A stretch of 64,000 nucleotides of DNA from Bdellovibrionaceae bacterium UBA6776 (GCA_002453155.1 DKGG01000011.1:32190-96189); one strand, 5' to 3'. Positions 48,562 to 58,209 are shown, counted from the stretch's first letter. Notes: generated from the letters alone by a model not told the origin. Made by a program: numbers and translations.

Positions 48562-51500
48562 TCAATTGGGCTTTGCCGGAAAATTGGGAAAAGCATTTGT
48601 CCATTCCAAGTTAACTCCTGTGATTGCCATTGCCAGTCTTTTGCTGGGTGTGATGGCGGTCTACCTCACTCCAAAAGAAGAAGAACCGCAAATTTCGGTT
48701 CCGATGATTGACATTCGAACTCCGGCTCCGGGTTTCACTCCAGAGGAAACCGAAAGAAAGGTGACCGAACCCATCGAACGCGCAGTCTGGGGATTGGATG
48801 GAGTGGAATATGTCTATTCTTCCAGTCAAGCTCATGGAAGCTTAGTGACTGTACGGTTTAAGGTGGGCGAACCCATGGAGCCCAGTCTTGTGAAAATTCA
48901 TCACAAGCTGATGACCATTCGCCATGAGCTTCCGGAAGCTTCGCGAAACTCCATTGTGAAGTCATTCTCTATTGATGACGTTCCCTTCTTGGTTTTGACC
49001 TTTAGCTCTCCGGAGATGGACGACTTTGAACTTCGAACAGCTGTGGCTCCATTGGCGCGGGAGCTTTCGAGCACTCCTGATCTTTCAAAAGTGGAAGTGC
49101 TTGGCGGGCGAAAAAGAGCCGTTCGCGTGATCGCTGACCCTAAAAAAATGGAACGCTACGGAGTTTCTCTTCTTTCTATTGTTCAAGCCTTAAAGGCCAA
49201 TGATGCCTTGGCTCCGGCGGGTAAAAACTGGAGTGACGAAGAAGTGGTCGACGTGGAAGTGGGAGGACGTCTTCACAGCGCGGACGAAGTTCAAAACTTG
49301 GCGATCGGCCAAAGAGCGGGACGAGTGGTCTTTGTCAAAGATGTTGCTGATGTTGTGGATGGGCCCGAACAATTGATTCGAAGTTCGGTTCTTGTTGAAG
49401 AAGGAAAAAAGCCAGTCAACGCGGTTTCGATTGTGTTCTCAAAACGCAAAGGGACAAATGTTGTGACCTTGGCCCGTCAAATTCTGAATCGTGCAGAGAC
49501 CTTTTTAAAGGAACAGCCGGCAAAGTTAGAAATGAGCGTGGTTCGTGATTATGGATCTACTGCTTCTGACAAATCCAATGAATTGATCGAGCATTTGCTT
49601 CTTGCCACCTTTTCAGTTGCGGTACTGATTGCAATTTTTATGGGAATTCGTGCTTCATTGGTTGTTGCAATTGCAATTCCTGTGACTCTGGCACTGACCT
49701 TGGCCATCTATTATTTCATGGGGTACACACTTAACCGAGTGACTTTGTTTGCATTGATTTTTTCAATTGGGATTTTGGTGGATGATGCAATTGTCGTGGT
49801 TGAAAATATTGAACGCCATTTGAAGAAAAATTTAAAAGACAGTTTTGTGAAGGTCACTATCGATGCGGTTAGCGAAGTTGGGAACCCGACAATTCTAGCG
49901 ACGTTTACTGTAATTGCGGCGATTCTTCCTATGGCTTTTGTACGGGGATTGATGGGGCCCTACATGAAACCCATTCCTGTGGGTGCAAGTTTTGCGATGA
50001 TTTTGTCTTTGATTGTTGCTTTTGTGGTGACCCCTTGGGCGGCAGTGAAGCTTTTAAAGCGGCATGAGCACAAAGAAGAAGATCACAAGATCAGTCGTTT
50101 GGATCAAATTTATCAAAGAGTCATGGAGACTTTGCTCTCTACAAAGAAAGCGGCCCTTGGTTTTGGTGCATTTACCATTGTTTTGCTTCTTGCTTCTATG
50201 AGTTTGGTGGCCTTCAAAGCAGTCAAAGTGAAGATGCTTCCTTTTGACAACAAAGAGGAATTTCAAATTGTGGTGGACTATCCCTCAACCACATCTTTTG
50301 AACAGGGAAAAACCTGGTCTGTGGAGCTTGCCGAAAAAATTCTTGAGAATGAAAATGTGGAGGCCGTTCAGGTTTTTGCTGGAGAACCAGCACCATTTTC
50401 TTTTTCCGGAATGGTAAAGCATACTTTCCTTCGAGGAGCAGATTTTCAAAATGATCTGCATGTGGTTCTTTCTGAAAAGGGTCATAGAGATCTTTCCAGT
50501 CATGAAGTGATAGAAAGTTTAAGACCTCTTGTGAAAGAGTTTGGGGAGTCTCACAAAGCCATCACAAAGGTTTTGGAAATTCCACCGGGGCCTCCCGTGT
50601 TGGCGACCATGATGGCAGAGGTCTATGGTCCCAGTGCCAAAGTCAGAGATCAGGTGGCTGGAGAAATCGAGCAGATCTTTGCCAATGAACCGAGCGTTGT
50701 CGATCTTGATACAACCATGAGATTGGGACGTCCCCGTCGGTTTTATGAATATGATCAAGCCCAGGGGGGATTGTTGGGAACCAAGTCCGCCGAATTGATG
50801 GTCCTCGGTCACTTGATGTTCTCTGAAACTCCAGTGACCACCTTGGCAGCGGTGAATGCTCCTGAAGAGGTCAGTGTGGATTTGTCCTTAGAGAATTCTG
50901 TGCGATCGAGTGCAGATCCTTTTCAAGGATTGCGAGTTCCATCTTTTGAGACGGGAACCGTGGAGGCTGATAAAGTTTTGAAGGCGCCTCGTGAAATTCC
51001 AAATAAGACACTCTATCGAAAAAATCTAAAGCCAGTGTCCTATGTTATGAGTGAGCTTTCCGGAGAAGAAGAAGCGCCGGTTTATGGAATTCTAAAGTTG
51101 GCGCCTCAAATTAAGTATCCTCTTCAGACCGCAGAAGTTCCTTGGGACACAACCTCACCTGTCGTGAAATGGGATGGAGAATGGTTTATCACCTACGAGG
51201 TCTTTCGAGATTTAGGAGGTGCCTTTGCCGTGGTGATGGTGCTGATCTACATCTTGGTATTGGGATGGTTTAAAAGTTTTACGGTTCCTTTGATCATCAT
51301 GGCTCCAATACCAATCAGTTTGATCGGGATTCTTCCAGGCCACGCAATTTTGGGATCCTACTTTACGGCGACGTCTATGATTGGGTTTATTGCTGGAGCT
51401 GGAATTATTGTGAGGAACTCGATCATTTTGGTGGACTTTATTGAGCATCAGTTGGCACGTGGGATGGGATTGAAACTGTCTGTCATCAGTGCCGGTGTGC

Positions 51501-51730
51501 TTCGATTTCGTCCCATGCTTTTAACAGCAGCTGCGGTCGTGGTCGGAAGTTCCGTGATGCTTGCAGATCCCATCTTTCAAGGGTTGGCAGTCAGTCTGAT
51601 CTTTGGGGAAATTGCTGCGACCATTTTAAGTCGTTTTGCGGTGCCTATTCTTTACTACTGGTTTGTCGGAAAAACCCGTCAAGCTGTCATTCAATCTGAA
51701 AATTCTTTGAAGGAAGGAGAAATTTTATGA
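48548..51730 (+). CDS. RND efflux permease (HAE-1/AcrB-like)
   Basis: 12-TM/two-loop layout; TM4 motif SIGILVDDAIVVVENIER; start overlaps the TolC stop by 14 nt. Confidence 0.9.
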   Translation: MMQDNQLGFAGKLGKAFVHSKLTPVIAIASLLLGVMAVYLTPKEEEPQISVPMIDIRTPAPGFTPEETERKVTEPIERAVWGLDGVEYVYSSSQAHGSLVTVRFKVGEPMEPSLVKIHHKLMTIRHELPEASRNSIVKSFSIDDVPFLVLTFSSPEMDDFELRTAVAPLARELSSTPDLSKVEVLGGRKRAVRVIADPKKMERYGVSLLSIVQALKANDALAPAGKNWSDEEVVDVEVGGRLHSADEVQNLAIGQRAGRVVFVKDVADVVDGPEQLIRSSVLVEEGKKPVNAVSIVFSKRKGTNVVTLARQILNRAETFLKEQPAKLEMSVVRDYGSTASDKSNELIEHLLLATFSVAVLIAIFMGIRASLVVAIAIPVTLALTLAIYYFMGYTLNRVTLFALIFSIGILVDDAIVVVENIERHLKKNLKDSFVKVTIDAVSEVGNPTILATFTVIAAILPMAFVRGLMGPYMKPIPVGASFAMILSLIVAFVVTPWAAVKLLKRHEHKEEDHKISRLDQIYQRVMETLLSTKKAALGFGAFTIVLLLASMSLVAFKAVKVKMLPFDNKEEFQIVVDYPSTTSFEQGKTWSVELAEKILENENVEAVQVFAGEPAPFSFSGMVKHTFLRGADFQNDLHVVLSEKGHRDLSSHEVIESLRPLVKEFGESHKAITKVLEIPPGPPVLATMMAEVYGPSAKVRDQVAGEIEQIFANEPSVVDLDTTMRLGRPRRFYEYDQAQGGLLGTKSAELMVLGHLMFSETPVTTLAAVNAPEEVSVDLSLENSVRSSADPFQGLRVPSFETGTVEADKVLKAPREIPNKTLYRKNLKPVSYVMSELSGEEEAPVYGILKLAPQIKYPLQTAEVPWDTTSPVVKWDGEWFITYEVFRDLGGAFAVVMVLIYILVLGWFKSFTVPLIIMAPIPISLIGILPGHAILGSYFTATSMIGFIAGAGIIVRNSIILVDFIEHQLARGMGLKLSVISAGVLRFRPMLLTAAAVVVGSSVMLADPIFQGLAVSLIFGEIAATILSRFAVPILYYWFVGKTRQAVIQSENSLKEGEIL

Positions 51731-51921
51731 GCATTCAACATCAAATTCGTGCCTTTGCAGGAACCTTTGTATTAGCGAGTTTGGCTTTGGCCCATTATCA
51801 TTCGGAATATTGGCTGTTCTTTACAGCCTTTGTTGGATTCAATTTGTTGCAGTCCAGCTTCACAAATTTTTGCCCCTTGGAAATGATTTTAAGAAAGCTA
51901 CAGCCCGCGAAAGTAAATTGA
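51727..51921 (+). CDS. DUF2892 (YgaP C-terminal-like) two-TM protein
   Basis: IRAFAGTFVLASL..FVGFNLLQSSFTNFCP; ATGA overlap with the RND stop. Confidence 0.75.
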   Translation: MSIQHQIRAFAGTFVLASLALAHYHSEYWLFFTAFVGFNLLQSSFTNFCPLEMILRKLQPAKVN

Positions 51922-51945
51922 TTTTTTTCAAGTGGTTTAAAGTTT

Positions 51946-51972
51946 AGGGATCTGTTCCGTATACAGATCCCT
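51946..51972 (+). terminator. Terminator-like hairpin
   Basis: 10-bp stem AGGGATCTGT/ACAGATCCCT with a 7-nt loop; only a weak T tract follows. Confidence 0.45.
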
Positions 51973-52004
51973 GAATTTCTGAGGTTCTATGGTCTCCTCT
52001 AGTA

Positions 52005-52072
52005 AATACACCCATCCATGGCCTCACAAGAATTTTCCTTTCAGGAAAATCGCCTCTTGTTTCCATGAGGTC
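52005..52072 (+). repeat. Foldback-repeat family, copy 0 (core only)
   Basis: CCCATCCATGG..TTTTCC-TTTCA-GGAAAATCGC..GAGGTC. Confidence 0.75.
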
Positions 52073-52084
52073 TATTCCTGTGTG

Positions 52085-52191
52085 TAAGTTGCTATTTCCC
52101 AAATCCATATTTCATAGAACCGGACACACTCATCCATGAGTTCTTCCAGCATTTGCCTTTCAGGCAAAGCGCATCCCGCTTGGTAGAGGTC
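52085..52191 (+). repeat. Foldback-repeat family, copy 1 (left arm + core)
   Basis: The arm at 52085-52119 matches the copy-2 arm at 30/35 positions. The core matches the copy-2 core apart from about 8 substitutions. Confidence 0.8.
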
Positions 52192-52203
52192 GGTTTCTGC
52201 GCA

Positions 52204-52348
52204 TAAGTTCTTACTTCTCAAATCCATATTTTATAGAAGCGGACACACTCATCCATGAGTTCTTCCAGCATTTGCCCTCCGGGCAAAACGCATCCTGCTT
52301 GCTGGAGGTCCTTTTCTATAAAATATGGATTTGAGAAGTAAGAACTTA
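52204..52348 (+). repeat. Foldback-repeat family, copy 2 (complete: 35-bp perfect inverted arms + 75-nt core)
   Basis: 52204-52238 is the exact reverse complement of 52314-52348. Confidence 0.9.
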
Positions 52349-52360
52349 CACACAGCAGGA

Positions 52361-53161
52361 TCAGCCTTTGTGGAGGTTGTGAGAGGCACACAATACTTGA
52401 AGGTTGTTCCTTCGCTGGTCGCCACCAAGTCTGACTGGAAAAATGTGATCGATTTGTAAGAACTGTCGAGATTCGCAACCTGGATATTGGCATTTGTAGT
52501 CCGCTGTCGTTAACACATCATTTCGCAGGCGCTTGGAAATTTGACGGGGATTCTTTGATTTTGGTGCACAAAACTCTTTTGTCTCAGTGGGTTTTGGAGA
52601 TTTCCTCTGAATGTTTTCATAAGATTTGAGTTCTTTTTCAATCAAGTCCATCAATAGGCTTTCCGCATTGTGCTTATGAGACTTCAGTGCTTTCAATCTC
52701 TCTAATTTTTCATGCTGTTCATGGGACAGCTCCAGTCTCAAATGCACTTTGTCTAAATACTCGGTCTTTTTGATCTTTATGGTCGGTGTGGGTTTCAAAA
52801 ACATGGCCTTTACTTCACGAGAAGATTTATTTTCCATAGACTTCAAAACTTTTCTTTTTTCCGCCACCGGCTTTTTTCGAAGATGCTTGAAAGCAGTGGT
52901 CACTGCAGACAGGGTCAGGCTTCCCTGATCAATTTTCTGTTTGATCTCAGGAACTTCCTTGGCCAAGCGGACACAGGCTTGTCTTTGGTAGGCAGTGGCC
53001 TCGGAGTATCCAAGTCCGCGAACCAAGTAATCGAAAAGAGAATGGTGACCCATCTCTAGATACTTTCTGCAGTTTTCCATTTCTTGAAGCTTATTTAGAA
53101 TTTCAGAAGTGATTCGTTTTTCTTTCTGGCGCAGCTCTAGAAGCTCATCGTGAATTTTCAT
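52361..53161 (-). CDS. HNH endonuclease with a DUF222-like helical N-terminal region
   Basis: C-terminal CQYPGCESRQFLQIDHIFPVRLGGDQRRNNLQVLCASHNLHK (HNH motif). Confidence 0.85.
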   Translation of the reverse strand: MKIHDELLELRQKEKRITSEILNKLQEMENCRKYLEMGHHSLFDYLVRGLGYSEATAYQRQACVRLAKEVPEIKQKIDQGSLTLSAVTTAFKHLRKKPVAEKRKVLKSMENKSSREVKAMFLKPTPTIKIKKTEYLDKVHLRLELSHEQHEKLERLKALKSHKHNAESLLMDLIEKELKSYENIQRKSPKPTETKEFCAPKSKNPRQISKRLRNDVLTTADYKCQYPGCESRQFLQIDHIFPVRLGGDQRRNNLQVLCASHNLHKG

Positions 53162-53424
53162 AGGTCCTCTTTCTTTTGAAAGAACATTACCATGGGTTTT
53201 TATTTTCTAATTTTACGCCTTAGTTTTGTTTTTGAGGAAGCTTTTGCAGTCGAGAACATCCGTTCTTGGAGTTCAAATTTAACGAGTACAGTAAGCCCGA
53301 GAATTGTTTTAAAGATGATCCTACAAATGATTTCAATTTAACGATTCGCTTAAACGAAATCGAAAAAAACAACGTCAAACATAGTTTCTAAAAAGATTAA
53401 GTTTCGCCGCAACGTTTAGTAGGC

Positions 53425-54515
53425 AACTAAAACTTGAGTGTCCGTAACCAGTGCGACTCCTGCGGAATTGAAAAAGGGTCACCCCTGACCTATTAATCAA
53501 GTTCGCAAAAATTCAACTAAAAGGAGTTTGTACTATGGTTAAGTACTCAAGGGTGACTTACGAGCAAAGATGCCAGATCTACGTATTGTTGCAAGCAAAA
53601 ACCAAGGTTCTTGAAATTTCAAGGCTTGTTGGGGTTCACAAAAGTACAGTTTACAGGGAGTTGAGGCGAAATTCCTACGCGACTAAAAATCCATACTCAT
53701 CAGTACGGATGTATGAGCCCAATAAAGCTCATGCGATGGCTCGACGAAGGTTTTTAGATCGTTGTCATAGAAAACTGTCAGTTACAGGTCTTGTGGAGAC
53801 TCAGGTTATAAAGCTTTTGCAAAGGGGCTGGAGCCCTCAATTGATTGCCGGAAGAATAGGTCTTGAGACTCGCAAGAAGCTTTCTCATATGACGATCTAT
53901 CGGTTTACGAAAAAGAACGCTTATTTAAAAAGATACTTACATCACAAAGGTCGTAGATATCCCTACCGACCGACGAGCACCAATCAAGGTCCGAAGCCTA
54001 AGTGGTGGCGCTCTGTGCACGAGAGGCCCTTGGCTTGTCAGGAGAGATCTGAGCTTGGACACTGGGAGCGAGATTTGATGTATGCAAAAGATAGAGCTCC
54101 GATATTAGTCTGTACAGATCGAAAATCGAGATATGTAACATGCTTAGAGTTGAACACTTCAGGTTCACAGGAAACGCAAGAGAAGACAGCGATTTTGCTA
54201 AAACCATTTCCTGTTCACTCAGTGACCAATGATCAAGGAAGTGAATTTAAATCCAGAAATCCCATGGGGTGCCCCGTTTACTTTTGTGATCCCAGAGCAC
54301 CTAATCAAAGAGGTACGGTTGAGAACACAATAGGTGTGATGAGGCGATTTATAAAAAACTCCACAGATCTTAGTGAAGTGAACTTAGAACAAATTGAAAT
54401 ATGGATGAACTTGAGGCCTCGCAAGGTCCTTGACTACAAAACACCCTATGAGGTTATGTTCGAAGAATCAGTCGCACTGGTTGTGTGAAACTAAGAAACT
54501 TGAGTGTCCGTAACC
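53425..54515 (+). mobile_element. IS30-family insertion sequence (outer limits given; minimal element 53446-54482)
   Basis: 13-bp terminal inverted repeat AACCAGTGCGACT (53446-53458) / AGTCGCACTGGTT (54470-54482). A roughly 25-bp direct repeat AACTAA(G)AAACTTGAGTGTCCGTAACC lies at 53425-53449 and 54489-54515. Confidence 0.7.
53535..54488 (+). CDS. IS30-family DDE transposase
   Basis: N-terminal HTH (RCQIYVLLQAK..ISRLVGVHKSTVYRELRRN); catalytic motifs GHWERDLM, TNDQGSEF, QRGTVENTIG. Confidence 0.9.
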   Translation: MVKYSRVTYEQRCQIYVLLQAKTKVLEISRLVGVHKSTVYRELRRNSYATKNPYSSVRMYEPNKAHAMARRRFLDRCHRKLSVTGLVETQVIKLLQRGWSPQLIAGRIGLETRKKLSHMTIYRFTKKNAYLKRYLHHKGRRYPYRPTSTNQGPKPKWWRSVHERPLACQERSELGHWERDLMYAKDRAPILVCTDRKSRYVTCLELNTSGSQETQEKTAILLKPFPVHSVTNDQGSEFKSRNPMGCPVYFCDPRAPNQRGTVENTIGVMRRFIKNSTDLSEVNLEQIEIWMNLRPRKVLDYKTPYEVMFEESVALVV

Positions 54516-54564
54516 CGCACGCTTCGTTTGCCACCCCTCTTTCGAGGGTCAGGTTTCGAGTGTT

Positions 54565-54688
54565 TTTTCAAGATCTAAAACCCATAATTCCTGACCCGAC
54601 CGTCCATAGACTCACCATCGTTTTCCTTTCAGGAAAATCGCATCCTGCTCGATTGAGGTCTGTCACTATGGATTTTAGATCTTGAAAA
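54565..54688 (+). repeat. Foldback-repeat family, copy C (22-bp arms with 1 mismatch, 80-nt centre)
   Basis: Arms TTTTCAAGATCTAAAACCCATA / TATGGATTTTAGATCTTGAAAA; core CCGTCCATAG..TTTTCCTTTCAGGAAAATCGCATCCTGCT..GAGGTC. Confidence 0.8.
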
Positions 54689-54773
54689 TAGACATCCATG
54701 AAACTTCTGTTCAAAAAAAATATAGGCGCCTATAAAAGTGATGCTTTTGAAATGTTTCGGGGGATTCTGCTAT

Positions 54774-54889
54774 CAAGTTCAACGATCCACAGAATAGGAT
54801 CTCCGGCAAGCAGGATGCGTTTTGCCGAAGTGCAAATGCCGGAAGAGTTCATGGATGAACGTATCCTATTCTGTGGATCGTTGAACTTG
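54774..54889 (-). repeat. Foldback-repeat family, copy B (27-bp perfect arms, 62-nt core in inverted orientation)
   Basis: 54774-54800 is the exact reverse complement of 54863-54889. The reverse complement of the centre reads TTCATCCATGAACTCTTCCGGCATTTGCACTTCGGCAAAACGCATCCTGCTTGCCGGAG. Confidence 0.85.
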
Positions 54890-54920
54890 AAAGTAAGCTT
54901 CCTCGAAATCTAATGCTTGT

Positions 54921-54944
54921 GAGCCCATGGATGGGCGTGTTTAC
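54921..54944 (-). repeat. Partial repeat: inverted copy of the 5' end of copy 0
   Basis: The reverse complement GTAAACACGCCCATCCATGGGCTC matches 52001-52024 (GTAAATACACCCATCCATGGCCTC) at 21/24 positions. Confidence 0.6.
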
Positions 54945-54990
54945 TTGAAGTGATTGTTAACCTGAAAAATTTGCTGTAGATGAGGAAAGA

Positions 54991-55028
54991 ACCCATGGAT
55001 GTCAGAGTCCAGCACGATTGAGGTCTAC
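54991..55028 (+). repeat. Partial repeat fragment (CCATGGATG + CGATTGAGGTCT)
   Basis: CGATTGAGGTCT is identical to the 3' end of the copy C core. Confidence 0.5.
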
Positions 55029-55099
55029 TAAAGTAAATCTTCTTCCTTCAAAGAGCTACAGAAATAAAACTAGAAAGAAACTCGACCAAATTCCACCAA

Positions 55100-56326
55100 T
55101 CAGTCTTGAAGCATCCGGTGGTGAAAACGTTTTTCTAGGGAAAGAATAAAAATGCAAATCAAACTGGCGCCGCCAAAACTCAATACCAAGGGGAGAATGC
55201 TCTCGTGATAGTACTTCCCAAGGAAAATTCCAATGGCCACAGATATTGTGCTTTGAACAAACCCAATCAAGGCAGACCCCACTCCGGCCACATGGCCTAA
55301 GGGCTCCATGGCCAGGGCGTTTAAATTCCCGAACAAAAATCCCACCGAAAAGAAAGTCAAAATCATATAGATCATAAAAACCATCAAAGGAGGTGGAGTC
55401 GAGGGAAGGTAATTGGTTAAATAGAGTGCAAAAAGATTAGAGATCAATGCCATCCACAAAAAAGCCCCAAGAATCAAACGCCGCATACCTAAAGCCATCA
55501 CCAGGCGGGAGTTGAAAAAAGAAGCCCCACCAATGGAAAGCGCTAGAATCCCAAACATCAGAGGAAAGAGCTTCTCCATATGAAAAATTCGCGAGAAAAT
55601 TTCTTGAGCAGAGCCCAGGTAACCCACAAAGATTCCAAATAAAATTCCCGAAACAATCATGCAAGAAACCGTCGTAGGTTGTCGAAAAGTCTCTTTAACT
55701 CCAAAAACTAACTGCTTGGCGGTGAACCCTCTTCTTAATCCCGGCGGTAGAGTTTCATGTTGGCGAATTGCAAACCACGCCCATAAACTCAAGGCGACCA
55801 CACACAAAAGAATAAAAATGGCTCTCCAATGAAAGAAATAAATCACTCCCTGACCCAGAGTGGGAGCCAATGCCGGCACCAAAATGAAAATGGTCATCAC
55901 CATAGAGGTGATCTGTGCCATCGCGTTCCCTTTGTACTCATCCCGAATCAATGCCAACGAAATGATTCGAGGAGCTGCTCCTCCAAAACCTTGAAGGAAT
56001 CGGCCGATGAGAAACCACTCAAAACTTTGAGTCATTCCCGCCAGAACGGAACCCATGGCAAAAATCGCAACGCCCCAATAGATGGGTGGCTTTCGGCCGA
56101 AGATGTCTGAAAGCTGACCAAAAATCAGCTGTCCAAATCCAAAACCCAAAAACAAAATGGCAATGACCATTTGCAATTGATCGGGTGTTTGAAGTCGAAA
56201 GTCTCTATGAATGGCGTTGAATGCAGGGAGCATGCTGTCAATGGACAGGGCAATCAATGATGTCATCAGCGCCATCAGAGTTACAAACTCGGGACGCGAC
56301 AATTTGGTGGGCGAATTCTGAGTCAA
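55100..56326 (-). CDS. MFS transporter, Bcr/CflA-like drug efflux
   Basis: 12 TM helices; N-terminal LIALSIDSMLPAF and GQL.DIFGRKP motifs. Confidence 0.9.
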   Translation of the reverse strand: MTQNSPTKLSRPEFVTLMALMTSLIALSIDSMLPAFNAIHRDFRLQTPDQLQMVIAILFLGFGFGQLIFGQLSDIFGRKPPIYWGVAIFAMGSVLAGMTQSFEWFLIGRFLQGFGGAAPRIISLALIRDEYKGNAMAQITSMVMTIFILVPALAPTLGQGVIYFFHWRAIFILLCVVALSLWAWFAIRQHETLPPGLRRGFTAKQLVFGVKETFRQPTTVSCMIVSGILFGIFVGYLGSAQEIFSRIFHMEKLFPLMFGILALSIGGASFFNSRLVMALGMRRLILGAFLWMALISNLFALYLTNYLPSTPPPLMVFMIYMILTFFSVGFLFGNLNALAMEPLGHVAGVGSALIGFVQSTISVAIGIFLGKYYHESILPLVLSFGGASLICIFILSLEKRFHHRMLQD

Positions 56327-56329
56327 AAT

Positions 56330-56776
56330 TTAGGAATCTTTCACAGAGGGGATGCCACAAAATTGAATCAAATTGAGTCCAACTTCTGGATTGGGCTTTC
56401 GAACCACATCCATATTCAAGGGACGGAAATTGATTTCACAGGTCACAGCGACTATTGCAGAAAACAAGTGTCCTCCAAAACATTTAAAATCAGGCCCACC
56501 CAATACGGTATGAATGTGAAAAAACGGTTCACCCTCTAAAAATGAAAGATTTCCCTCAAGGCTTAAAAGTTCCACTTCGTCCTTAAAGAGTTTTCGATCG
56601 TAAGACTTTGAGTGCAAATGAAAGAAGCCCAACTCACAATCTTTTAAGGCTCCAATTCCACTCAAATGCCCGGACTTAAGGGATTCAGCTTTGGCGAACT
56701 TTTGGAGAGAGCCAAACAAATCTTCATCTTTATCAATGCGAATAAAATAGCGGTCTTGGTCTTTAAAATATTCCAT
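56330..56776 (-). CDS. PPC (DUF296) domain protein
   Basis: G.LSGIGAL.D.ELGFF......Y....F....ELLSLEGNLS......FFHIH..LGG.....GGHL. I chose the ATG at 56776 to avoid overlap with the divergent gene. Confidence 0.75.
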   Translation of the reverse strand: MEYFKDQDRYFIRIDKDEDLFGSLQKFAKAESLKSGHLSGIGALKDCELGFFHLHSKSYDRKLFKDEVELLSLEGNLSFLEGEPFFHIHTVLGGPDFKCFGGHLFSAIVAVTCEINFRPLNMDVVRKPNPEVGLNLIQFCGIPSVKDS

Positions 56777-56865
56777 AAAGAGGAAGTAGGGATTGGCTTG
56801 CAGATTGTCAATAAAAGCTTCCGTTAGTATTGCTTCGGTCTTAGGAAAGTGATGGTATAAGGGGC

Positions 56866-58209
56866 ATGAAATCAAAATTGTGCTCAATCTTACCCGTGGT
56901 TTTCATTTTAATGGTGGCAATCAATCCTGTTTTGGGGACTTTTGCGGCTCATGCGCAGCCATCAAAGACGCAAGGCGCTTCGGACTCGCAAATTGAGTCT
57001 GAAGTGACGGCACGTTTGTCTTCCACCGATTGGTTTCCCAACTTGCGCGTGCAGGTCAAAAACGGCTTGGTCTTTTTAGATGGAGAGATTCCCTCGCAGG
57101 AAAAAAAGGACTGGGCAGAAAAACTCATTCTAAAAACTCCCGGAGTCATCGACATCGTAGATCGGTCGGAAACCACGTTACAGCCCCATGAAATTTTGAG
57201 TCCTGCTGCCGAAGAAACTCGAAAGCTCTTGCAACGATTTCATCGCTTGGTTCCCTATTTGGTTTCCTCCGTTTTGATCTTGATTGTTTTTGGCCTTCTT
57301 TCTTATTTCGCTCACAAGATCCTTTTGTCCGTCATTCAAAAACGCTTGAAAAGCATTCTTATGGCTCAGGCCCTGGCAAAAGTATTTGCACTTTTCTTTT
57401 TAATGATTGGCTTGTACTTGGCCCTAAAATCCAGTGGTCTTTCGGGCTTGGCCTATACGGTTCTTGGAGGTACGGGCTTTATTGGACTTGGAGTTGGTCT
57501 TGCTCTTAAAAACAGTTTGGAAAACTACGCCGCGGGAATTTTGATCAGTGTTCGAGAGACTTTTCGAAAAGGAGAGATCATTCAAATCAATGGGATTGAA
57601 GGCGTTGTCCAAGCGGTGACCTCCCGAGGGACCTCTCTGATGGACTATGAAGGGAACCATATCATCATCCCCAACTCAGAGGTTTTTAAATCCACCATAA
57701 AAAATCTGACCCGAAATCCAAATATGCGCGCGGATTTTGGAGTTGGAATTGGCTATGATGACTCTGTGGACAAAGCTCGTAAGGTGATTCGTGAAACCTT
57801 GGCGAAAATGGACACACTTATTTTGAAAGATCCAGATCCCTTGGTTACAGTAGACAATCTGGGTGCGGCCACAGTGAATTTGCGAATTTACTTTTGGTTT
57901 GACGCCATCAAATACAGCAAACTGAAAATTCAGTCGTTGGTGATTCAAAAGGTGAAAGAGGCTTTGATGGACGCTCAAATTTCTATGCCTGACGATGCCC
58001 GCGAAGTTGTCTTCACCAGTCCGCTGCATGTGGTTCAATCTGCTGAAAAGGATGTGCCGGCAAAAGCTCCTGATAAAATCAATAAAAGCGAAACTCCTTC
58101 CATGGTGGATTTTCATGGGGAGGACCTGTCCAGCGAATGGAACCAGGTTAAAAAACAGGCTCTCATGTCAGAGGCTTCAGAAAAGGGTGAAGACCTTTTG
58201 GGTCAGTGA
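56866..58209 (+). CDS. BON-domain + MscS-family mechanosensitive channel
   Basis: Signal peptide; BON-like VTARLSS....NLRVQVKNGLVFLDGEIPS; MscS core GEIIQINGIEGVVQAVTSRGTSL. Confidence 0.85.
   Translation: MKSKLCSILPVVFILMVAINPVLGTFAAHAQPSKTQGASDSQIESEVTARLSSTDWFPNLRVQVKNGLVFLDGEIPSQEKKDWAEKLILKTPGVIDIVDRSETTLQPHEILSPAAEETRKLLQRFHRLVPYLVSSVLILIVFGLLSYFAHKILLSVIQKRLKSILMAQALAKVFALFFLMIGLYLALKSSGLSGLAYTVLGGTGFIGLGVGLALKNSLENYAAGILISVRETFRKGEIIQINGIEGVVQAVTSRGTSLMDYEGNHIIIPNSEVFKSTIKNLTRNPNMRADFGVGIGYDDSVDKARKVIRETLAKMDTLILKDPDPLVTVDNLGAATVNLRIYFWFDAIKYSKLKIQSLVIQKVKEALMDAQISMPDDAREVVFTSPLHVVQSAEKDVPAKAPDKINKSETPSMVDFHGEDLSSEWNQVKKQALMSEASEKGEDLLGQ

Follow-up and report, generated by a model that had tools for sequence, protein, structure and literature searches.

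The family of hairpin elements examined here, from marine Bdellovibrio-like bacteria, is best described as a conserved core, placed at the tip of a hairpin, with a stem written from the local DNA. The conserved unit is the central structured core only, of about 60-75 nt, and the arms on its two sides probably arise, grow and regain their match through fold-back or template-switch copying, as judged from comparison of the copies. The window analysed is a stretch of 64,000 nucleotides from Bdellovibrionaceae bacterium UBA6776, which corresponds to contig C40:32190-96189 of a genome of 2.9 Mb in 69 contigs. The original prediction, made from this window, held that the arms differ between copies while remaining complementary within each copy, and offered two options: selection for a hairpin, with every change matched on the partner arm, or regeneration of one arm from the other. 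Regeneration is the better supported of the two, by locus-specific arms of up to 104 nt at 100%, by mirrored coding DNA and by flips of the core; selection with matched changes is less supported, although wobble intermediates and a strand bias leave room for some of it.

It is usually through conserved inverted ends that intergenic repeats of bacteria are recognised. In the present family the ends are host DNA and it is the tip that is conserved, so that standard repeat or MITE finders would miss the family or split it wrongly. Its many independent copies provide a natural system in which the creation of arms, their homogenisation and the inversion of a spacer by templated copying can be read, with gene ends included among the templates. 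Such templated copying processes are the ones invoked for how RNA stems stay paired, and covariation in a long stem is by itself no proof of selection on an RNA. If the core does provoke the copying, this would represent a new route of self-installation for a selfish sequence, placing strong hairpins at the 3' ends of genes, with consequences for termination, mRNA stability and genome rearrangement.

In the window, a tandem array begins with copy 0 (52003-52074, plus strand; nhmmer match C40:84192-84263), a core without a matched arm pair, for which no partner arm was found among the flanks. Copy 1 (52078-52193, plus strand) consists of a left arm (52078-52125) and a core (52120-52193) and itself lacks a right arm; the left arm is able to pair at 85% with the right arm of copy 2. 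Copy 2 (52197-52355, plus strand) has arms of 48 nt at 90% (52197-52244 and 52308-52355) around a core at 52245-52307, and its right arm is separated by 5 nt from the stop codon of an HNH nuclease gene (52361-53161, minus strand; 266 aa, Pfam PF01844), one of about 25 paralogs found by tblastn. Between the HNH gene and the remaining copies lies an IS30-like transposase ORF (53535-54488, plus strand; HTH_38 and rve domains), an unrelated insertion. Copy C (54560-54693, plus strand), a member of an eight-copy subfamily, has arms of 37 nt at 81% (54560-54596 and 54657-54693) with the core between them, and copy B (54755-54908, minus strand), with arms of 46 nt at 85% (54755-54800 and 54863-54908), has its core inverted with respect to copy C. 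Two decayed core fragments (54901-54943 and 54976-55010, spanning 54901-55010 on the minus strand; partial nhmmer matches C40:87090-87132 and 87165-87199) are located beside the 3' end of an MFS transporter gene (55100-56326, minus strand). The IS30-like element is flanked by a perfect direct repeat of 20 nt, AAACTTGAGTGTCCGTAACC, at 53430-53449 and 54496-54515, a length unusual for a target duplication of the IS30 family.

The complementarity claimed for the three copies was recovered at the places given. Positions 52204-52238 of copy 2 are the exact reverse complement of 52314-52348 (35/35; expected in shuffles, 0), those of copy B at 54774-54800 and 54863-54889 match at 27/27 inside a perfect run of 28 nt, and copy C is matched at 21/22 in the stretch quoted. 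The divergence of arms between copies was likewise borne out, the 30 core-proximal bases agreeing at 14/22 to 18/24 aligned positions (about 55-70% alike), as was the opposite orientation of the core of copy B to those of copies 0-2 and C. As single-stranded DNA, every copy in the window folds on either strand into the same Y-shaped hairpin, with z of -7 to -15 against shuffles. A search of Rfam with 50000-57000, which includes all the copies of the window, returned only sub-threshold matches to miRNA precursors, which are explained by the long hairpin. Contigs assembled from four DNA runs over 51900-55100 gave identical same-strain pieces and cross-mapping paralogs only. None of the RNA runs covered the region, the two metatranscriptomes listed having no sequence words in common with it. 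The sole same-genus genome (G001; DNA identity about 75%) has an ortholog of the MFS gene of the window with neither element nor palindrome, and a search for an element site shared between the two genomes found none.

To cover the genome as a whole, copies were catalogued using a profile built from the five window cores as query and a threshold of E<1e-3. This identified 122 core matches in the window genome, about 105 of them full length and 102 full length with flanks. The cores are extragenic, often arrayed and located at contig ends, and form 53 clusters, many of mixed orientation. Runs masked by N amount to about 18.8 kb of the genome (e.g. C46:32692-33078, C46:89390-89779 and C44:28296-28573), several of them beside HNH cassettes or repeat arrays, and the catalogue is therefore a lower bound. 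Paired arms, typically of 25-50 nt, are present in 76 of the 102 full copies (about 75%); the remaining copies, without paired arms, occur in tandem arrays of the form arm-core-arm-core-arm. The comparison of arms within and between copies, proposed as a check of the original prediction, upheld it: the arm score within a copy has a median of 42, against a median of 14 (95th percentile 24) for the left arm of one copy with the right arm of another. Watson-Crick pairs constitute 2651 of the 3055 arm pairs in the window genome (87%), a mean that the perfect arms of copies 2 and B exceed.

In an alignment of the 76 copies, which had been selected for the presence of arms, 92% of the cells are paired, compared with 70% when shuffled and 36-50% when the partners are slid. 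Changes on both sides were observed at all 26 arm pairs and at 42 of the 48 pairs over the whole consensus. The six consensus helices all covary, including the short internal ones; they comprise the arms, a basal helix of 4 bp (GGAC/GUCC), a helix of 5 bp, a mini-hairpin of 2 bp that closes an AGGAU loop, and the hairpins UUUGCCC/GGGCAAA and GCCCA-UGGA-UGGGC. A conserved internal loop of 2-3 nt separates the arms from the basal helix in the copies of the window genome. Two invariant GGA motifs occupy the loops of small hairpins, GC-AGGAU-GC and GCCCA-UGGA-UGGGC (e.g. 52245-52307, read on the minus strand). The two core loops, CAGGAUG and AUGGAUG, resemble the CsrA-binding repeats of CsrB-type RNAs, the first reading like the repeated motif itself, and a CsrA gene is encoded in 5/5 genomes checked.

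Arms that match nowhere else in the genome belong to 51 of the 102 copies, and many of these are still 90-96% complementary. The other half of the copies have arms common to one to more than eight further copies and therefore constitute subfamilies. The HNH gene, whose paralogs are 68-89% identical, is closely associated with this pattern: 80 of the 122 core matches are clustered no more than 2.5 kb from an HNH copy, and 14 of the 25 HNH copies whose 3' end is intact have a core at most 160 nt downstream of the stop codon. Much of the sharing of arms is due to duplication of whole HNH cassettes. The contrast drawn in the original prediction with MITEs, whose ends are conserved between copies, is thus real, but was overstated for the window genome, in which about half of the copies fall into conserved-arm subfamilies produced by cassette duplication.

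Within subfamilies 179 arm changes affect one side, 74 of these giving wobble pairs, and 86 are double changes that compensate each other, while only about 10 compensated changes are expected from independent hits. The subfamily of copy C is marked by one-sided change (45 against 4 compensated). Copy 2 has four positions at which both arms are derived, and at two of these the siblings carry the change on a single arm, as U.G; the double changes of copy 2 fit one single copying from arm to arm. The single sibling of copy B, C46:140099-140170, has four arm mismatches. Some siblings of an HNH-proximal subfamily differ by mirrored blocks, an indel included. When HNH cassettes are aligned from the stop codon, the cassette of C28 has the same arms in the same position as those of C22, C53 and C40, and its core is inverted. 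The opposite orientation of copy B is possibly such a flip too.

The element was identified with its covariance model in 21 of the 109 genomes of the taxonomic family, representing 12 of 35 genera. A strict pattern scan of public genomes gave seven loci, all in Bdellovibrionales / Pseudobdellovibrionaceae MAGs, the pattern probably being too strict to gauge a wider spread. Across 63 copies drawn from 20 further genomes, arm pairing reaches 98% with hardly any wobble, and nearly every arm position shows all four Watson-Crick pair types; this alignment is model-fitted, consists of the best model matches and favours well-paired arms. In the window genome most arms carry mismatches, which softens the picture drawn in the original prediction. 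A model-free repeat finder gave arms of 66, 83, 85, 96 and 104 nt at 99-100% in the genome G090, and in 18 other genomes arms between 27 and 87 nt, of which about half are matched at 97-100% and the rest at 85-89%, with sequences that are all unrelated. The centre between the arms of the relatives is asymmetric and 51-68 nt long, the G+C content of the element (0.31-0.65) tracks that of the host, and GAC/GTC at the base is the sole part shared by the arm sequences listed for the relatives. Target-site duplications, proposed as a further check, were looked for as direct repeats outside the arms of five perfect-armed G090 copies, and none was found.

Stems of 83-104 nt that are perfect, nearly free of wobble and yet unrelated between copies are not the expected legacy of gradual compensation, which argues that the arms were generated by copying. 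The source of the copies can be traced where arms run into genes. On contig C10 of G090 (locus L073), the left arm (1440-1522) starts within the ORF of a 294-aa OppC-like permease and includes its last 27 nt (AFDPKMKK and stop), and the right arm (1585-1667) is its exact mirror, ending a single base short of the convergent gene's stop codon. Orthologs of the permease in 40/40 genomes align to the last or second-to-last residue, element-free loci included, and at element-free loci they end ...GDGLRDALDPKMK(T/GSV). Since the C-terminus is kept without the element, the coding arm is ancestral and the partner arm a templated inverted copy of it. Likewise, the right arm at G091:C109 holds NLKVGLQLVF and the stop codon of a 253-aa gene and is mirrored by the partner arm; the G090 ortholog of this gene (40% identical) ends FKVGLHLVF, 35 nt from its convergent neighbour, without an element. 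At the permease locus of G094 the studied core lies between arms of 87 nt (87%) that include MKK and the stop codon, and is inverted with respect to that of G090. A mirror image of the last codons of a host gene, 27-31 nt long, is beyond what point substitutions can write, and compensation point by point is thus excluded as its source. Within the window genome itself no arm clearly holding coding DNA was found; apparent cases in C47 (67/81) and C55 (66/74) were over-extensions of the local alignment, the real arms ending a few bases before the stop codons.

Other centres were observed at the same permease locus. In G091 (L078, G091:C216, 2419-2640) the centre is a different one of about 110 nt, with perfect locus-specific arms of 59 nt; this centre is multi-copy, with eight copies in G091 and four in G093. 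In G092 (L101, G092:C20, 2366-2637) a third centre of about 46 nt lies between arms of about 110 nt at 85%, which hold KMKK and the stop codon of the permease and its mirror copy. The locus in G093 has a spacer of 39 nt, in which no palindrome was found. Four species of one genus therefore have palindromes with three different centres at this locus. The gene on its far side differs in each species, and because of this no exact empty site can be aligned at the permease locus of G090.

It is proposed that one arm serves as the template from which the other is synthesised as its reverse complement, so that the arms would not be inherited terminal repeats. Likely routes would be a template switch within one molecule during replication, or priming from a fold-back in the course of repair, with the hairpin itself as the seed. 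The template would be whatever adjoins the core, making the arms locus-specific and allowing them to enter the end of a neighbouring gene. Repeated re-copying may convert several mismatches at once, mirror indels and occasionally invert the core between its arms, and we infer that arms have been regenerated repeatedly. The window genome would represent a later stage, in which arms were inherited with HNH cassettes to give subfamilies, decayed between re-copyings to 87% pairing, and underwent occasional re-copying (copy 2) and flips (C28). The support comes from sequence comparison throughout. The enzymology, whether a replicative switch or break repair, and the way in which the core arrives at new sites are the more conjectural parts of this proposal.

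The proposal draws on the quasipalindrome literature. Template switching (the Ripley model) is established as a process that creates and perfects hairpin stems, corrects several mismatches at a time, lengthens the arms and turns the spacer around (Mönttinen and Löytynoja 2022, PMC8794818), and all four footprints are seen here; PMC8604942 and PMC13100816 likewise support the mechanism. An arm that is a reverse-complement copy of the native flank was found in G090, G091, G094 and G092, and mirrored multi-base changes and indels, together with spacer inversion, were found as well. The known process differs in being sporadic and in acting on arbitrary inverted repeats, whereas the element studied has a conserved multi-copy core in 12 genera, and practically all its copies possess arms, as long as 104 nt. 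Two observations fit a simple form of it less well. The strand bias of the mismatches is not predicted by simple template switching and suggests that one strand is under selection or that mutation is linked to transcription. The conserved internal loop at the junction of the arms and the basal helix counts against copying that always starts at the core, because such copying would erase the loop.

These observations leave room for an alternative in which the whole element, arms included, is functional as a fold of RNA or of single-stranded DNA, for instance as a protein-binding RNA, a bidirectional terminator or a stabiliser of 3' ends, and its arm changes were fixed pair by pair through wobble. 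The covariation of all six helices, short internal ones included, and the wobble intermediates that siblings carry at some positions compensated in copy 2 are what such selection would leave. On the strand as first aligned, A.C/C.A mismatches outnumber G.T/T.G (139 vs 58) and pyrimidine-pyrimidine mismatches outnumber purine-purine (165 vs 42), so that mismatches favour G.U on the opposite strand, which is also the strand that folds better (mean -65.3 vs -58.5 kcal/mol, a difference of about 7 kcal/mol). Solo copies sit at the 3' ends of genes, 8 of 14 being flanked by convergent genes and none occupying a divergent promoter region, and 11 of the 14 HNH-proximal copies share one orientation to the gene, with 3 in the other. 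This alternative is nevertheless considered unlikely as the origin of the arms. It would have to produce by substitution the mirrored coding ends and the unrelated perfect arms described above; core flips reverse the sense of the RNA without loss of the copy, and the locus-specific flanks make a conserved promoter impossible.

Equally improbable is a second alternative, in which the core, as a small mobile module, enters the tips of palindromes that some general process has already produced at gene ends, the arms owing nothing to the core. The three different centres at the permease locus of one genus (the studied core in G090 and G094, 110 nt in G091 and about 46 nt in G092) and the occurrence in the window genome of a second core family with locus-specific arms are in its favour. 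However, out of 78 long palindromes in the window genome 21 hold the studied core, most others fall either into the second core family or into a single family with conserved arms, and few lack a repeated centre; core and arms also occur together in every one of the 19 G090 copies examined, all with arms of at least 43 nt. Perfect long palindromes without a spacer are moreover generally unstable in bacteria. The arms would in any case still need templated mirror copying, only the order of events being different. The original prediction had named unrelated host palindromes as a finding that would count against it, and this applies insofar as the distal arms are host DNA; at least where they are coding, they are mirror duplications of the flank and not palindromes that existed before.

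An ordinary MITE-like origin, with the arms as terminal inverted repeats of several diverged masters and perfect arms marking recent insertion, is hardly credible: the arms shared by about half of the window-genome copies, their frequent mismatches and the one-sided decay in the copy C subfamily would suit it, but it is already contradicted by the locus-specific arms, with half of the copies unique in their genome and many of these still highly complementary, by the different arms of each copy in the relatives, by host coding DNA in the arms and by the absence of target-site duplications, and no autonomous element with the same ends was found among the neighbouring and candidate genes examined.

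Comparison with known systems places the family apart from several of them. Bacterial MITEs such as Correia/NEMIS, ERIC and the Rickettsia RPE are small, non-coding, foldback and present in many copies, with solo copies located between genes, like the element studied, and their terminal inverted repeats are conserved family-wide, usually with target-site duplications. The inverted ends of the present element are instead shared only within subfamilies of the window genome and not across genomes, and target-site duplications are lacking. REP/BIME sequences and REPINs with their RAYT (Y1/HUH) are likewise extragenic, hairpin-forming, high-copy, clustered in both orientations and found at gene 3' ends; in the window genome the studied element is also associated with a nuclease-type gene of many copies. 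In REPs the stem sequence, with its conserved head motif, stays the same from copy to copy, whereas here the core is conserved and the stems are locus-specific. The extragenic, clustered, both-orientation arrangement of REPs was found in the family, and a head motif or shared palindrome was not, the arms being unrelated in 20 genomes and only the 60-75 nt centre conserved. Integron attC sites are recombination hairpins of conserved structure and varied stem sequence, with R/L boxes at the base of the stem, a variable centre and cassette arrays near an integrase. The element differs from attC in its conserved centre and in stem ends that are arbitrary host DNA. The mycobacterial DUF222-HNH '13E12 repeat' genes are a multi-copy small HNH gene, a feature shared with the family of the window genome, where the hairpins flank the HNH gene, but the hairpin family also exists without HNH. 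By the features tested, the family is not REP/REPIN, MITE or any Rfam family.

Candidate mobilisers were examined through their distribution. HNH homologs are present in 50 of the 109 family genomes, among them 16 of the 21 that carry the element. There is none, however, in G036, where the element reaches at least 12 copies, and G090, with at least 20 copies, encodes a single distant homolog; G040, conversely, encodes five close homologs but lacks the element. This rules out HNH as an obligatory partner, though the two are linked in the window genome. Nine weak matches to PF01797 (Y1_Tnp) above the cut-off were found in the window genome, in ORFs of 150-180 aa that are possibly RAYT-like (C36:267-797 and further ones in C66, C46, C45, C69, C62, C26, C7 and C31). 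Only the C36 copy adjoins a hairpin element (C36:993-1111), and a search for PF01797 in the element-bearing genomes G090, G091, G094, G043, G056 and G058 gave no matches; Y1/RAYT is thus ruled out as the mobiliser by distribution. Neither HNH nor Y1 genes strictly co-vary with the element, and the neighbouring IS30-like and IS3 genes are unrelated insertions. At G090 C11:182800-187600 (L099), two inverted copies of one subfamily bracket 3.6 kb whose sole contents are an IS3 transposase and a pair of C-terminal Rhs/YD-shell fragments; this may be an orphan toxin-cassette region that rearranges readily.

A more tentative extension of the copying proposal, which we regard as possible without expecting it to hold, is that the studied cores and at least two further core families of the lineage form a distinct class of selfish elements at the tips of gene-end hairpins. 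Such elements would need no dedicated transposase and might spread and become entrenched by forcing fold-back or template-switch synthesis, which would write a mirror of the native flank, an inverted rather than a direct target duplication.

A second family of the same architecture is present in the window genome (C31:75930-76040, C66:29703-29799, C47:146549-146635 and C23:22252-22368), with an asymmetric centre of about 35 nt, GCRAGTTCCGCARC..GTGAGGACTGTTCGAAGA, and near-perfect arms of 28-40 nt that are different at each site. In contrast to the studied family, a conventional palindromic repeat of about 75 bp, located at no fewer than 25 sites (among them C38:87936-88014, C2:588-664 and C44:36681-36757), has conserved arms, CGCCAAAAGGTACCTGCTTCCTTTTCCGATATGC, around a 3-nt centre, ACC or GGT.
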